From: Parcubacteria bacterium C7867-006
GTDB lineage: Bacteria > Patescibacteriota > Minisyncoccia > Phycocordibacterales > DATDWN01
NCBI GenBank assembly: GCA_001189155.1
Contig: LFCP01000001.1
Span: forward strand, 23,160-87,159
DNA length: 64,000 nucleotides
Direction of reading: 5' to 3'
Shown: piece after piece, positions 7,333 to 62,993 of the stretch
Layout: every line of letters starts with the position of its first letter
How positions within the stretch are numbered: the first letter of the stretch is position 1
Position numbers and translations under genes: made by a program
The notes under the pieces: model-generated
Database searches by the model: none
Told to the model about the DNA's origin: nothing
Seen by the model: only the letters and a program-made list of their open reading frames with translations

Positions 7333-8190
7333 TTATTTTGCTTGTTTGCTAACAGTAAATCTACCAATAATAGCGTTGAAAATCTTATCATTTTTTGTAA
7401 TCAGGAGGGTTTCTTTGTCTATAAAAGAATAAAGAAGTTCAATTTTCCCAGAAGGGCTTCTCAGCACCCTGAGGTCTTTGTTTTTTACTGCTAGGTCGCT
7501 AAATGGACTGGTTGTGCTAACAAGGTCTGGGTTGATTGAAAATATTTTTTGTAAATCTTTCGGCATATCATTTTCCCATTTAAGCATTCCAGAATAACTT
7601 GAAGCAAAATCTTTTACTTTGATGATAAAAAATATTTCATTTGTATCATACGAATAAACCCCAATCATATATTGGCTATCAAATGACCTGATTAGAGATG
7701 ATGGTGCGCTTGGTCCAACAAGAGACATTATTTTACTGAGTTGAACCGGGTTTGTTCCATCTGTGGTGTTTACATACAAAACAGAATTAACTGGTTGTTT
7801 AAATCCCTCTTTCTCTTTGGTTAGTGCGATTATAAGATTTTCTCTTGTTGAGCTAGCGACAGCAATACTGTCTTCTTTTGTAAAACTCAAAAGAGTTTTT
7901 GTTGCTTGTTCTACAATAGTTTTTTCGTGAGCTCTAAAATAATATATACCTATAACACTTCCCACTCCTAGTATAAAAAATATCACACTCAAATATATAA
8001 AAATTTTGTTTCTTGTTCCGCTGTATCTGACACTCACCACTTTCTCAGGTCTCTCTTCTTTTCTCTTTTGTTCTGCAACAAGAATAGTGGTACTGGAGTA
8101 TTTATTTTTACCAATAGCTTCCTCCACATCACCTTGGTATGTACGTAGTGATTTTATTGGAATTCTTCCTTTTTTTTCTTCTGGAGGCAT
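7333..8190 (-). CDS. Hypothetical membrane-anchored protein
   Basis: 285-aa ORF with a single N-terminal TM segment (IFIYLSVIFFILGVGSVIGIYYF); no recognisable domain. Confidence 0.5.
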   Translation of the reverse strand: MPPEEKKGRIPIKSLRTYQGDVEEAIGKNKYSSTTILVAEQKRKEERPEKVVSVRYSGTRNKIFIYLSVIFFILGVGSVIGIYYFRAHEKTIVEQATKTLLSFTKEDSIAVASSTRENLIIALTKEKEGFKQPVNSVLYVNTTDGTNPVQLSKIMSLVGPSAPSSLIRSFDSQYMIGVYSYDTNEIFFIIKVKDFASSYSGMLKWENDMPKDLQKIFSINPDLVSTTSPFSDLAVKNKDLRVLRSPSGKIELLYSFIDKETLLITKNDKIFNAIIGRFTVSKQAK

Positions 8191-8244
8191 TTGTATTAGT
8201 TTAACAAAATATTATCAATTATAAAATCAATTTTTTTGAAAATA

Positions 8245-8440
8245 AAAAAGACCGGCATGTGCCGATCGTGTGTGACTTAACTTTGCACTGACCATATGGT
8301 CAGTAACTCATAACGAACTCCTTAACCTGGTCGGGAGAAGGAGGATCAGAACCAAACGCCCGCATTGGAGGCGCGCGCGTATGGTGCTGGCCCCGCCCCC
8401 CTTCTCCCTTCCAGGTCCCGCCAATTCTTTACGATGGCGA
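8245..8440 (-). ncRNA. Candidate structured small RNA, unclassified (possibly SRP-RNA-like or 6S-like), ending in an intrinsic terminator
   Basis: About 60% GC island in a 33% GC genome with no ORF. A long-range helix CCUGG..GGGAGAAGG / CCUUCUCCC..CCAGG encloses about 60 nt. Minus strand carries tandem 3' hairpins (ACUGACCA/UGGUCAGU, CGGCA/UGCCG) followed by a U6 tract. Confidence 0.35.
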
Positions 8441-8496
8441 AATATCTACCAATATAATATATCTAAAAGTGGTTTATGTCAATTATTATAGACAAC

Positions 8497-8532
8497 AAGA
8501 AACGGAGCTTAAATGCTCCGTTTCTTGTTATT
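8497..8532 (-). terminator. Rho-independent terminator downstream of the NYN gene (possibly bidirectional)
   Basis: agaaacggagc-ttaaat-gctccgtttct hairpin flanked by A/T runs. Confidence 0.6.
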
Positions 8533-9084
8533 TTATTCTTCTGTTTTTGTTCTAGGAACTCTTCTTGTGCTCCTATCTCTGAATCCAAGTAAATATTTTC
8601 TAGGATTTAAATCTAGGTCTATGAAGTCATCACTAGCTTCTATAAGTTTTGCTGAAGTAGCTTTTCCAAAAGACATTACCTCAACTTGGCACCCTTCATT
8701 CTGCAAGTATTCAACTAGTGGAACAAAATCACCATCTCCTGTTACTAGTATTATCGCATCTAGTTTTGGAGCAAGTTTGATAGCATCAACAGCGAGGCCG
8801 ACATCCCAGTCTGCTTTTTTTGAGCCTCCAGCAAATATCTGGAGATTTTTTGTTTTTGTTTCTATTCCCATCTTACCAAGAGCTTCGAAAAAGTTTTTCT
8901 CATCCCCTGCTTCGGTGGTAATAACGTAGGCAACAGCTCTGGTTAGAGATCTGCCTGCTAGACCGTCTTTTACAACTTGGTCAAAGTTTACTTTTGCGCC
9001 ATAAATATTTTTGGCACAATGATAAAGGTTCTGGGTATCTATGAAGATCCCAACCCTTTGGTTTTTGTGTTTAATTACACTCAT
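8533..9084 (-). CDS. NYN-domain (LabA/YacP-like) putative RNase
   Basis: VGIFIDTQNLYH and LVTGDGDFVPLV motifs typical of the NYN/PIN-like fold. Confidence 0.75.
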   Translation of the reverse strand: MSVIKHKNQRVGIFIDTQNLYHCAKNIYGAKVNFDQVVKDGLAGRSLTRAVAYVITTEAGDEKNFFEALGKMGIETKTKNLQIFAGGSKKADWDVGLAVDAIKLAPKLDAIILVTGDGDFVPLVEYLQNEGCQVEVMSFGKATSAKLIEASDDFIDLDLNPRKYLLGFRDRSTRRVPRTKTEE

Positions 9085-9466: not shown

Positions 9467-9596
9467 TGATGAAAGAATATCATAAATACCTTTATTTTGC
9501 AAGCTGTTTTGCATAGCTATAAACAGCCTGTTTTCTCTCTTAAAACACTTGACATTTATCTTATTTATGATATTATTGTAGGTAAGGGAGGTCGTC

Positions 9597-9785
9597 ATGG
9601 CTAGCTTCTCAGTTTCTCTCATCGGGTCCACTAACCATATCATCGTTCACTCGTTTGTGGACGGAGACCGGATTGTGGAAATCCCAACTCGCCGCTCCAA
9701 GGAAGACTTTCTCGCTCACATCCGTTGGCTCGAACGCCACGGGCGCCGTGAAGAAGCAAGGGTGCTCCGAGAGAAGTACTCTTAA
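9597..9785 (+). CDS. Small protein (62 aa) of unknown function in GC-rich mini-cassette A
   Basis: About 55% GC versus a 33% host. GGGAGG SD 7 nt upstream of ATG. Upstream TTGACA-16-TATTAT promoter. Followed by a GC-rich terminator. Confidence 0.55.
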   Translation: MASFSVSLIGSTNHIIVHSFVDGDRIVEIPTRRSKEDFLAHIRWLERHGRREEARVLREKYS

Positions 9786-9797
9786 CTCACAACTTTT

Positions 9798-9835
9798 GGC
9801 CGTCAGTTCGTAAGAGCTGACGGCCTCTTCATTTA
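9798..9835 (+). terminator. Intrinsic terminator of cassette A
   Basis: ggccgtcag-ttcgtaagag-ctgacggcc hairpin followed by tcttcatttat. Confidence 0.7.
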
Positions 9836-16632: not shown

Positions 16633-16703
16633 GCGGGATTAGTTTATCGGTAAAACGACAGTTTTCCAAACTGTAGTGAGCGGTTCGACTCCGCTATCCC
16701 GCA
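16633..16703 (+). tRNA. tRNA-Gly (anticodon TCC)
   Basis: Acceptor GCGGGAU/AUCCCGC, anticodon loop UUUCCAA, T-arm AGCGGUUCGACUCCGCU. Confidence 0.8.
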
Positions 16704-16749
16704 CAGACGAAAGGCCCCTCGAAAGAGGCGGCCTTTCGCTTTTAGCGGG

Positions 16750-16960
16750 ATAGCGGAGAGAGGGGTCGGGAGAGGATACTCTCCCGTGGAGGAAGGTGAG
16801 GTTGGGATGGGACCCAACCGCAAGACCTTTTTCAGGTATTTTATGAGCAGAGCGAAATAAAATACCGAAAAGGTGTACTGCTCCTGTAAGGAGGGGAGTA
16901 TTTAAAACCGCCGGTTTCCCAGCCCGCGTATTCCCGCACTTTACAATTATTTTTGTAATG
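16750..16960 (+). other. GC-rich structured non-coding element bracketed by tRNA-Gly-like 5' and 3' end sequences
   Basis: Starts GCGGGAUAGCGG (compare tRNA 5' GCGGGAUUAG) and ends UAUUCCCGCAC (compare tRNA 3' UAUCCCGCACA). Internal hairpins GGGAGAG-GAUA-CUCUCCC, GGUUGGG..CCCAACC and GGUAUUUUAU..AUAAAAUACC. Preceded by a 13-bp terminator hairpin at 16706-16745. Confidence 0.3.
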
Positions 16961-20604: not shown

Positions 20605-20790
20605 CTACTGGAAACGCGATCTTCCTTCCGATGTGGTCCTCAGCCCGACGGTTTCGTCCTGGGTCGGGTTGTTTTTGGGAAGGTTGTTGTACTCGGGACA
20701 CGCCTTGCCGTGCCCTGCATTTCCATGGAAAGTCTGGTTGCACCACGGGCACTCGCGTTCCCGAGGCGGGTCCACAAAAGATCTTGGCAT
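20605..20790 (-). CDS. Small Cys/His-rich protein (61 aa, putative zinc ribbon) in GC-rich mini-cassette B
   Basis: About 60% GC. GGAGGAGGAG SD immediately upstream of ATG. CPWCNQTFHGNAGHGKAC motif. GC hairpin terminator gagggcccgg..ccgggctc followed by T6 at 20550-20590. Confidence 0.5.
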   Translation of the reverse strand: MPRSFVDPPRERECPWCNQTFHGNAGHGKACPEYNNLPKNNPTQDETVGLRTTSEGRSRFQ

Positions 20791-36460: not shown

Positions 36461-36826
36461 TTGAAGGTTGTGTACACAGCGCAAATGCCATTCATGAGAG
36501 ATGGGCGTCCTGTTGGTGCGCGTTTCGAGACTGAGGATGACTTTATCCCTGATTTCGAAATGGAAATCAAGCCAACAGACGACGTAACTCTCTACGTTGA
36601 GAGTCGATCGTACAACCCGCATGACAAGTCGGTCTGCATCGAACTCACATTCCTCAACCCCTTCGATGAAGAAGACGAAGGCGCAACAGATCTCGATTCA
36701 CGAGAGCTGGCGCAGATCGAGATGGCACTCGAGCAGTTGATCGCGAATGGTTGGTTACCCATCAACGATGATGACCTCATTCGTTCTGATGGTGAGTTGC
36801 CGAAGCGCAGGGAGTCGACTCACTAA
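36461..36826 (+). CDS. Acidic protein (about 121 aa, roughly 23% Asp+Glu) of unknown function in GC-rich mini-cassette C
   Basis: AGGAGG SD 6 nt before a TTG start (alternative ATG at 36485). About 55% GC. Terminator ggtcggcac-ttcg-gtgccgacc at 36851-36880. Confidence 0.5.
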   Translation: MKVVYTAQMPFMRDGRPVGARFETEDDFIPDFEMEIKPTDDVTLYVESRSYNPHDKSVCIELTFLNPFDEEDEGATDLDSRELAQIEMALEQLIANGWLPINDDDLIRSDGELPKRRESTH

Positions 36827-36962: not shown

Positions 36963-37340
36963 CTAGATACCCAAGTCGTAGCGTTCGGTTGATGGAAGAT
37001 ATTTTCTTCCCAGCCACCGAAAGATGTAGTCCACGATAGATGAGACTTCAGGGATTTCTGGGTCGTTAGTCCTCCCGTACGGCTCAAATTTCATGAAGGT
37101 GAACTTCTTCACGAACACTCGGAGCGGAACTCCTCTTTGCAAGGAAGCCGAAGTTCCCATTGCAATAGAGTTCAGAAGACCAGAGAGAGTTGAGCCCTCT
37201 TTGTTCATTCTGACAAAAATCTCACCGAGTGTACCGTCGTCATAGACGCCGGTAGTGATGATGATTTCGTGTTCTCCGTTGATCCACACTGTCCGTGTAA
37301 ACCCGGCCCTTTCTGGGGGTAGACGATTTCTTTCTGCCAT
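36963..37340 (-). CDS. Isolated C-terminal fragment (125 aa) homologous to class II (B12-dependent) ribonucleotide reductase, part of cassette C
   Basis: GEIFVRMNKEGSTLSGLLNSIAMGTSASLQRGVPLRVFVKKFTFMKFEPYGRTNDPEIPEVSSIVDYIFRWL resembles the NrdJ C-terminal region. Own GGAGG SD. About 48% GC. No N-terminal catalytic part nearby. Confidence 0.45.
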   Translation of the reverse strand: MAERNRLPPERAGFTRTVWINGEHEIIITTGVYDDGTLGEIFVRMNKEGSTLSGLLNSIAMGTSASLQRGVPLRVFVKKFTFMKFEPYGRTNDPEIPEVSSIVDYIFRWLGRKYLPSTERYDLGI

Positions 37341-41358: not shown

Positions 41359-41643
41359 GTGAGACACGCCAAATTTGAGCAGTATACTTTCCGGTATACT
41401 GTCCCAAGCACTGACGCACAAGGAGAGGAGACGAGGGTGAAAAGAGAGATTCCCCTCGGTTTCAAGACCAGAGAGACAGCTTTGGCGATGGTGAGGGAAT
41501 ACGCCATCAGCCTCAGCTCTGACCCGAATCTTCAAGGGTTCAAGCTCATCTGCCCAGACGATTCCGAGATCGAAATCGATGTCTCGGGGGTGGTTCGGGT
41601 GAACGAGACGGCGCTGGGGATGCTTTCCCACAGCCGGCCTTAA
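41359..41643 (+). CDS. Small protein (94 aa) of unknown function in GC-rich mini-cassette D
   Basis: AGGAGG SD 5 nt before a GTG start. About 55% GC. Upstream TTGACA-17 promoter. Terminator acgaccgg..ccggtcgt followed by a T-run at 41668-41710. Confidence 0.5.
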   Translation: MRHAKFEQYTFRYTVPSTDAQGEETRVKREIPLGFKTRETALAMVREYAISLSSDPNLQGFKLICPDDSEIEIDVSGVVRVNETALGMLSHSRP

Positions 41644-62288: not shown

Positions 62289-62993
62289 GTGGCAGATTGG
62301 AAAAAGAGCAAACCTAGAAGAGACTGGAATGCTCCTCCGAAGAAGTACGCAGGCCTACCACCCCCTCCAAAAGAGGCTGTGGCTAGGTATGTCGAGATGC
62401 TCGACAAAATCCCCAGACCAGGAAGGGTCATTGATTGGGGGCTTAGGGAAGGTGACCAGTTGCTCGTGAGCTGGCTTCCTCCATACGTAGCTGATGGTTC
62501 TCCACAAGGTGATATAAGAGGGTGTCAGATCGCAGTTCTGCGAGACGGCAAGTATCTTCTTTGGAGCGCTCGGCTCCTAATGAAGGACCCAACTGAAACT
62601 TACCTTTGTGCTCCATACCTAACATCCAAGAAGGATGTCGGCCACTTTGTTGATCTCATTGCGCGACTCTCCGGTTACGCTTTGCAGGTGAATGTAGAGG
62701 CTACAACATCCTTCAGGGCTGTGCTGGTGGATTCTGGTAATGAAGTTAGTCGCCGTGTGGTTCGTGGCGACGAGCTTTACTACAGCTTCGCATCCAGAAT
62801 ATTCACTGTTTCTCGCTCTCACATGACAATTGATATGAACCTTTATCATCCAACTGACTCTGGTATTATCATTGAGGCTAGGACTCCATACCTCAATGCT
62901 ATTCACCATGGTGTTGCGCTGGTGCACTTGGCCGCTGAGGTCAACGGGTTCATGCCAAAGTGTGTGGGTAACAACAAGTACGTTTGTGTGTAG
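62289..62993 (+). CDS. Protein (about 234 aa) of unknown function in GC-rich mini-cassette E, inserted between secY and adk
   Basis: About 55% GC. AGGAGG SD 7 nt before a GTG start (62289). Upstream TTGACA-17-TAGACT embedded in the secY terminator. GC hairpin terminator ggccgcgacgatgttctcgtcgcggcc at 62997-63023. Confidence 0.5.
   Translation: MADWKKSKPRRDWNAPPKKYAGLPPPPKEAVARYVEMLDKIPRPGRVIDWGLREGDQLLVSWLPPYVADGSPQGDIRGCQIAVLRDGKYLLWSARLLMKDPTETYLCAPYLTSKKDVGHFVDLIARLSGYALQVNVEATTSFRAVLVDSGNEVSRRVVRGDELYYSFASRIFTVSRSHMTIDMNLYHPTDSGIIIEARTPYLNAIHHGVALVHLAAEVNGFMPKCVGNNKYVCV

Follow-up and report, generated by a model that had tools for sequence, protein, structure and literature searches.

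Bacteria of the Candidate Phyla Radiation (CPR) are uncultured, have genomes of less than 1 Mb and lack many standard regulators, and to our knowledge hardly anything is known of their regulatory or structured RNAs. The locus studied here raises the question of what an element of exceptionally high guanine plus cytosine (GC) content represents in such a genome. It lies at about 8244 to 8447 of a 64-kb stretch of DNA from Parcubacteria bacterium C7867-006 (hereafter the window), between an NYN gene and a membrane-protein gene, both on the minus strand. The GC content is 60-62% at 8243-8447, against a mean of 36.5% (0.365) for the window; values computed over 100 nt peak at 0.60-0.61 in the interval 8300-8449, and 8261-8470 holds the GC maximum of the whole 64 kb (0.625 over 120 nt). 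The longest open reading frame (ORF) overlapping 8240-8450 on either strand has 38 aa, and none of the ORFs overlapping this interval has a ribosome-binding site. We consider it very likely that 8447-8244, minus strand, is a real structured small RNA (sRNA) gene of a new family.

An earlier description of the locus, made from its letters alone (the sequence-only reading), had proposed a minus-strand sRNA candidate that is GC-rich and ORF-free, is closed by a long helix, is followed by two tight hairpins and a U6 tract, and is flanked by a membrane-protein gene and an NYN gene. The analysis bears out each of these points. The long helix (CCUGG..GGGAGAAGG with CCUUCUCCC..CCAGG) is real, being the basal part of a 94-nt minus-strand hairpin (8324-8417); the two tight hairpins correspond to P4 (8288-8303) and the terminator (8250-8267, with T6 at 8244-8249), and the proposal of an sRNA is strengthened by homologues that carry compensatory base changes.

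Fold, homologues and covariation of the RNA

Folding of the minus strand gave -96.9 kcal/mol (z = -7.2), a value that none of 200 shuffled sequences reached, and folding of the plus strand gave -77 kcal/mol (z = -4.3). In the main helix, P3, six of the 22 pairs are G·U on the minus strand and would be A·C mismatches on the plus strand, which identifies the minus strand as that of the RNA.

For comparison we fetched related loci (L-numbers), all from Parcubacteria/Paceibacteria assemblies: 80 through the NYN protein and further ones through homologues of the membrane protein, for which a metagenome scan contributed two loci only. A blastn search of the 80 loci with the RNA gave no match, and homologues surfaced only with covariance models. 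Model R1, built from the window sequence alone and run over 719 kb, picked out L004 (E 0.0055) and L089 (E 0.0071); the two matches lie exactly between the NYN and membrane-protein genes and on the gene strand. Model R2, for which L004 and L089 were the only input, gives the window minus strand 44.4 bits (E 1e-9) and does not list the plus strand; in the newly fetched loci it recognized L093 (1e-15), L091 together with the identical L092 (4.6e-13), and L099 (1.2e-4), again between the same two genes. A third model, R3, combines the six distinct members; each of them scores at E<=4e-7 with it, and its search of the window returned no second copy of the RNA. The family thus consists of the window and five other distinct Parcubacteria contigs, with the RNA at the same site and on the same strand; in each it is preceded by TTGACA...TAYTAT and followed by a hairpin and a U run. 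A further contig, L094, begins inside the RNA. In L100, the spacer between rpsO and the NYN gene is AT-rich and without the RNA.

An alignment made with MAFFT misplaced the 3′ arm, and model-based alignments were used instead. In the six-member alignment, 19 of 39 pairs are changed on both sides, among them 3 of the 5 pairs of P1 and 5 of the 7 pairs of P2. Standard pairs occupy 93.5% of cells, as compared with 39-56% after a shift of the 3′ partners by 1-3 columns, and none of 500 shuffles attained the observed pairing values. Alignments of three and of five sequences give the same pairing picture.

The conserved core comprises P1, P2, a purine loop (AA/GA), a GGGAG/CUCCC helix with a G·U followed by a G-C pair, an AGUUCU motif and the terminator. 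Invariant are the one G that separates P1 from P2, the first three G-C pairs of P3 (6/6 members) and, in the internal loop, the A that precedes GGG and the G that follows CCC. The loop otherwise varies among members (AA/GA, CAA/GAA, CGA/GAC and, in L099, AAA/GGA). About one helical turn up P3, five of the six members have a G·U and then a G-C step, L099 being without the G·U. L004 retains P3 only as far as this step, which suggests that P3 up to that point is the essential part of the helix. Above it, the apex GCG-CCUCCA-CGC is common to the window, L089, L091 and L093, and the apex is wholly different in L004 and L099. After P2, most members continue with (A)AGUUCU, a small hairpin, an AAGUU or AGUC element and the terminator: an AGUUCU-like motif stands directly after the P2 3′ arm in L004, L091 and L093 and appears as GUUCU in L099, but is absent from L089; hairpins equivalent to P4, of other sequence, occur in L004, L091, L093 and L099; and AAGUU- or AGUC-like elements precede the terminator also in L093, L004 and L099. 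On inspection, two further contacts were discarded: a helix that would join the 5′ tail to the 3′ linker, and so create a three-way junction, is not conserved, and a kissing contact between the P1 loop and the apex loop is inconsistent between members.

An element of this kind could also be non-functional or selfish GC-rich DNA, that is, a decaying remnant of acquired DNA that happens to fold. In favor of this, several GC-rich insertions with strong promoters and terminators lie between core genes in the window, most of them small orphan genes with GGAGG ribosome-binding sites, and the closest relatives are without the unit at this site. The homologues, however, occupy the same site even where the flanking membrane protein is only 52-55% identical to that of the window (L004, L089), and the combination of many pairs kept by changes on both sides with the retained promoter boxes points to selection on the RNA structure rather than to decay. 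Moreover, the G·U pairs are strand-specific, the unit is present in single copy in the window, and blastn against phage and plasmid records gave no match. A scan of viral contigs for the pattern GGGAG..GCGCCTCCA..CTCCCGA returned 12 matches, none of them with the fold; we regard them as chance matches, eleven lying in contigs of 58-71% GC and one (L109) in a contig of 46%. The sequence-only reading had held that lack of an Rfam match would indicate a degraded foreign remnant; there is no Rfam match, yet the structure is conserved across diverged genomes, and the step from the one to the other fails. We hold it improbable that the element is such a remnant.

In more distant Parcubacteria, the site between the NYN and membrane-protein genes holds GC-rich units of 150-210 nt with a promoter, a hairpin and a terminator (L005 3829-4018, L008 4552-4766, L011 4589-4826, L014 3434-3619, L016 4577-4812 and L082 1579-1792), several of them with a G-rich/C-rich hairpin atop a purine-rich internal loop; in L008 the AGUUCU-like motif is present as well. 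R3 gives L005, L008 and L011 11-18 bits, and no same-strand match at the site in L014, L016 or L082. Homology of these units to the RNA is unproven, since the R3 scores are no better than those of unrelated terminator hairpins, and they may be either fast-diverging relatives or independent occupants of the site.

The predicted transcription unit and its neighbors

In a promoter scan, the minus strand showed TTGACA-17-TATTAT at 8482..8454, a sigma-70 promoter that agrees with the consensus at 11 of 12 positions, and the spacing of the boxes predicts a transcription start near 8447. Every family member ends in a hairpin and a U run. Taking the promoter together with the terminator hairpin (8267..8250) and the strong terminator that closes the upstream NYN gene, the RNA is predicted to extend from about 8447 to about 8244, or about 205 nt; the NYN terminator keeps the NYN transcript apart from the promoter of the RNA. 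The features of the RNA and its surroundings are collected in Table 1.

Table 1. Positions in the window of the RNA, its signals, the flanking genes and the GC-rich small ORFs
Feature	Position	Strand	Description	Basis or remark
-35 box	8477-8482	-	TTGACA	promoter scan; TTGACA and the following TTTTAGATATAYTATA kept in L089, L091, L093, L004
-10 box	8454-8459	-	TATTAT, 17-nt spacer	promoter scan
P1	8419-8439	-	5-bp hairpin CGCCA/UGGCG, 11-nt loop	folds; 100% of cells paired across members
P2 5′ arm	8411-8417	-	GACCUGG, 7 pairs with 8324-8330	folds, alignment
Internal loop, 5′ side	8409-8410	-	AA	A adjoining GGG in all members (alignments A4-A6)
P3 5′ arm	8387-8408	-	GGGAGAAGGGGGGCGGGGCCAG, main G-rich/C-rich helix	folds
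Bulge	8381-8386	-	6 nt, CACCAU	minimum free energy and centroid folds; not conserved in other members
Apex hairpin	8356-8380	-	loop CCUCCAA at 8365-8371	folds
P3 3′ arm	8333-8355	-	UUGGUUCUG-A-UCCUCCUUCUCCC	folds, alignment
Internal loop, 3′ side	8331-8332	-	GA	CCCGA in 5/6 members; CCCGGA in L099
P2 3′ arm	8324-8330	-	CCAGGUU	folds, alignment
First linker	8304-8323	-	single-stranded, with (A)AGUUC(U/G) motif at 8314-8320 (here GAGUUCG)	member comparison
P4	8288-8303	-	small hairpin CUGACC-AUAU-GGUCAG	folds
Second linker	8268-8287	-	UGCAAAGUUAAGUCACACAC, AAGUU and AGUC repeats	read from sequence
Intrinsic terminator	8244-8267	-	7-bp stem 8250-8267, then U6 (T6 8244-8249)	terminator scan
Terminator of NYN gene	8494-8529		strong hairpin closing the gene	terminator scan
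NYN gene	8533-9084	-	183 aa	orthologues in fetched loci carry NYN PF01936
Membrane-protein gene	7333-8190	-	285 aa, single-pass
Extended -10 of membrane-protein gene	8198-8206	-	TGtTAAACT, 7 nt before ATG	read from sequence
GC-rich small ORF stretch	9549-9825	+	GGAGG site
GC-rich small ORF	20605-20790	-	GGAGG site
GC-rich small ORF	36461-36826	+	GGAGG site	no Pfam family
GC-rich small ORF	36963-37340	-	GGAGG site	TSCPD domain
GC-rich small ORF	41359-41643	+	GGAGG site	no Pfam family
GC-rich small ORF	62289-62993	+	GGAGG site	no Pfam family

The membrane protein matches no Pfam family and shares 100% identity with a protein recorded under the name of Parcubacteria bacterium C7867-006. In every member, rpsO stands two genes upstream of the RNA, and the immediate flanks consist of rpsO, the NYN gene, the membrane-protein gene, dksA/traR, and comM or pnp. 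These flanks contain no reverse transcriptase, cas or toxin gene, and we set aside a retron RNA, a CRISPR or trans-activating CRISPR RNA, and a toxin-antitoxin RNA. In a number of more distant relatives (L018, L026, L029, L031, L036-L039, L044, L047, L058, L059, L062 and others) the NYN gene is directly followed by the polynucleotide phosphorylase gene, pnp; the resulting order, rpsO-NYN-pnp, links the NYN nuclease to RNA turnover.

The arrangement of a promoter, a structured GC-rich RNA, a terminator and, about 55 nt further on the same strand, a gene is the classic layout of a riboswitch, and this order is held in all members. The RNA might then be a cis-acting 5′ leader (a riboswitch or an attenuator) of the membrane-protein gene, its terminator being a regulated switch and its promoter the one that drives the gene. 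Several observations speak against this. The membrane-protein gene appears to have a promoter of its own: the motif TGnTAnAnT-N7-ATG is found at the same position in L001-L004, L088, L089, L091, L093 and L099, that is, in loci with and without the RNA, including relatives that have just 16-75 nt between the NYN and membrane-protein genes. This conserved motif 7 nt ahead of the ATG, together with the lack of a Shine-Dalgarno sequence at the gene, suggests that the mRNA is leaderless and starts from an extended -10 promoter. In addition, we found no antiterminator alternative that is conserved, the members differ in their terminators and 3′ domains, both in sequence and in the number of hairpins, and no Rfam riboswitch or aptamer family matches. 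A leader function is therefore unlikely, and we infer that the RNA acts in trans and not as the leader of the downstream gene.

Nor do we find it credible that the locus encodes a small protein. It does contain ORFs of 20-38 aa, the linker holds AAGGAG-N6-AUG, and neighboring GC-rich islands do encode small proteins. However, the AUG after AAGGAG opens an ORF of three codons that is not conserved in other members, the other ORFs are without ribosome-binding sites and cross helices or the terminator, and the substitutions between members are compensatory for the helices, with indels of many sizes. The mini-ORF itself is a feature of the window RNA only, where the linker at 8304-8323 (minus strand) reads UAAGGAG-N6-AUG AGU UAC UGA, a perfect ribosome-binding site followed by three codons.

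Some facts weigh against an independent sRNA gene of a conserved family. The unit is missing at the site in the closest relatives (L001-L003, L081, L083-L088), where 16-75 nt separate the two genes and the membrane protein is 58-68% identical to that of the window; L090, with a membrane protein 55% identical, has a spacer of 112 nt and no element. Given this absence, the RNA is either dispensable in the closest relatives or located elsewhere in their genomes. Moreover, the family amounts to six distinct sequences and model-fitted alignments favor the structure, the E-values are rough owing to a shortened calibration of the models, and the promoter, start site and terminator are computational predictions. 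On balance, we still think it probable that the element is an independently transcribed structured sRNA of about 205 nt, belonging to a Parcubacteria/Paceibacteria (CPR) family that is fixed at the site between the NYN and membrane-protein genes and has a regulatory or protein-binding role in trans.

Comparison with known RNAs

The sequence-only reading had suggested that the overall shape is compatible with the small signal recognition particle (SRP) RNA, 4.5S, and had remarked that no SRP, RNase P or transfer-messenger RNA (tmRNA) gene is evident elsewhere in the window. The second statement stands, also for 6S RNA: with Rfam 15 at gathering thresholds, the whole window yields four tRNAs only. 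At E<=10, the region 8150-8560 (411 nt, both strands) shows no SRP, 6S, RNase P, tmRNA, riboswitch or leader family; the weak matches at that cutoff, all far below gathering threshold, are to microRNA and small nucleolar RNA models on the element, and to sRNA and terminator-like models on the AT-rich flanks. In L004, L005, L008, L011, L014 and L016, of which only L004 is a confirmed member, a search at E<=1 likewise gave no SRP or 6S match; across all these Rfam scans, tRNAs alone attained the gathering threshold.

A divergent housekeeping RNA would fit in a superficial way. Like bacterial small SRP RNA (RF00169), the element is an elongated hairpin, about 100 nt long and rich in GC, within a genome that is AT-rich, and like 6S RNA (RF00013), it is a stand-alone, highly structured RNA of about 200 nt with promoter and terminator, conserved in structure and poorly in sequence; neither gene was found elsewhere in the window. 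Against this, no covariance model of RF00169, RF00013 or a related family matches at E<=10. The apical loop, CCUCCAA, is not of GNRA type and varies between members, the internal loops of SRP domain IV are missing, and this RNA has P1, P4 and a 3′ domain in addition; the 5′/3′ closing stem and the large central bubble of 6S RNA are absent from the folds. Close relatives do not have the gene at this site; for an essential RNA that would be unexpected, unless they carry it at another position. Since there is no Rfam match, no GNRA tetraloop, and no closing stem or central bubble, we reject both identities, and the SRP suggestion falls; a divergent version of either RNA seems to us barely conceivable.

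The proximity of rpsO invites a different comparison, with rRNA mimics that bind a ribosomal protein, such as the site of S15 and S6/S18 on helix 22 of 16S rRNA; the RNA would then be a decoy acting in trans near rpsO. Besides the position of rpsO two genes upstream in every member, there is a likeness in structure to S15 binding sites (16S helix 22 and rpsO leaders, for example RF00114): a purine-rich internal loop (AA/GA; AAA/GGA in L099) beside a G-rich/C-rich helix, and a G·U followed by a G-C step. The core presumably resembles helix 22 of E. coli and B. subtilis, with its AGA/GGA loop and G666·U740/G667-C739. However, the known S15 regulators lie in the rpsO 5′ untranslated region, and this RNA is a separate unit past the NYN terminator; no S15-leader family of Rfam matches; and the helix that would close a three-way junction is not conserved. 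The G·U step stands about 10 bp from the loop, rather than adjacent to it as in helix 22, and L099 is without the G·U. We rate a ribosomal-protein decoy as very unlikely.

Long GC-rich intergenic regions (GC-IGRs) of AT-rich genomes have been a source of orphan structured noncoding RNA motifs in surveys from the Breaker laboratory (PMC6429828, PMC8632094, PMC11109978). The element shares with such motifs a long GC-rich intergenic region, conserved helices that covary and the lack of an assigned function. It differs in lying outside Rfam 15, and the titles and abstract openings returned by our literature searches on Parcubacteria, Patescibacteria or CPR noncoding RNA contain no paper naming the motif, nor do they name any regulatory or structured RNA for Parcubacteria. 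The family is lineage-restricted, without a match in Rfam 15.

Candidate function and GC-rich islands

As our best guess, the RNA is an sRNA that works in trans, either in regulation or by binding a protein. Within the core, the invariant loop of tandem purines next to the GGG/CCC helix, with its fixed G·U and G-C step, has the look of a protein-recognition site and may serve as one. A second possibility concerns the subclade of the window, in which the apical loop exposes CCUCCA. This resembles an anti-Shine-Dalgarno sequence and could base-pair with ribosome-binding sites that read GGAGG(C), so blocking translation. Within the window, GGAGG at 4-7 nt from a start codon occurs almost only at six GC-rich ORFs (Table 1), four of which read GGAGGC, complementary to GCCUCC of the loop; the apical GCGCCUCCA loop is complementary to the GGAGGC(GC) version used by these four, and GGAGGC(GC) presumably pairs over a longer stretch with the loop than with the 16S tail. 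If such pairing took place, the RNA would act as a dedicated brake on the translation of one distinct class of genes, possibly acquired, in an ultra-small symbiont.

In its general type, such an RNA would be akin to the Hfq-independent sRNAs of Gram-positive bacteria that act through C-rich loops (RsaE/RoxS, RF01820): it is free-standing, with a predicted promoter and intrinsic terminator of its own, and has a C-rich loop sequence (here CCUCCA) able to pair with G-rich Shine-Dalgarno regions. It differs from them in giving no Rfam match, in its far greater length, about 205 nt, of which the 94-nt hairpin is the dominant part, and in that the C-rich loop is conserved in just four of the six members and the targets are candidates read from sequence.

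Several results count against the pairing. The CCUCCA loop, present in four of six members, is absent from L004 and L099 and therefore cannot be the family-wide function. A GC-rich probe favors GC-rich ribosome-binding regions in any case, so that composition bias is likely to contribute, and GC-rich genes with GGAGG also occur in relatives that are without the RNA at the site. No conserved pairing was found across members with the start regions of the membrane-protein, NYN and dksA genes, the strongest z being -2.0. With a biased probe, a loop that is not family-wide and GGAGG genes in relatives lacking the RNA, the lead is a weak one: an anti-Shine-Dalgarno mechanism as such is a tentative idea that we would not favor, and it is more doubtful still that the RNA is specifically a silencer of GC-rich accessory genes.

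The GC-rich ORFs are of interest in themselves. They are small, have a GC content of 0.49-0.58 and stand among AT-rich core genes, one of them between secY and adk, and all six carry the GGAGG ribosome-binding site at 4-7 nt from the start. Pfam finds no family for five of the six, 36963-37340 being the exception. The flanks of two of them were read (9597-9785 and 20605-20790), with a terminator and a promoter or promoter-like -35 box in each case; the scan found only the one at 9549-9576. Small GC-rich ORFs with GGAGG sites also start at L001 2178, L002 2513, L004 3516, L005 250, L011 3439, L013 2460, L088 338, L093 137 and L096 405; the ORFs of the relatives have a GC content of 0.50-0.65 in loci of 0.37-0.40. 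In L088, L093 and L096 the GC-rich ORF lies upstream of rpsO in the opposite direction, like the 62-aa gene of the window, and beside xerC where that gene was called. Small ORFs led by GGAGG and rich in GC thus look like a general feature of the clade.

The window contains a second GC-rich stretch without a convincing ORF, at 16705-16945 on the plus strand, which follows a tRNA (16633-16703) and a terminator-like hairpin; a 59-aa minus-strand ORF with a TTG start (16644-16823) overlaps both the stretch and the tRNA. It folds into a multi-branched structure (-111.5 kcal/mol, z -6.7) whose closing helix includes an inverted copy of the tRNA 3′ end (AGCGGGATAGCGGAG), and at E<=1 the tRNA is the only Rfam match. 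A further structured RNA is one possible reading of this stretch, an integration scar another.

Taken together, these observations indicate that the GC-rich islands of these AT-rich genomes are a mixture of structured RNAs and small orphan genes with unusually strong translation signals. With its conserved promoter, covarying core and invariant purine loop beside GGG/CCC, the RNA at 8447-8244 offers a concrete object for metatranscriptomes and for tests of protein partners. The family is small and narrowly sampled, yet it represents a clean new RNA family in poorly understood bacteria.

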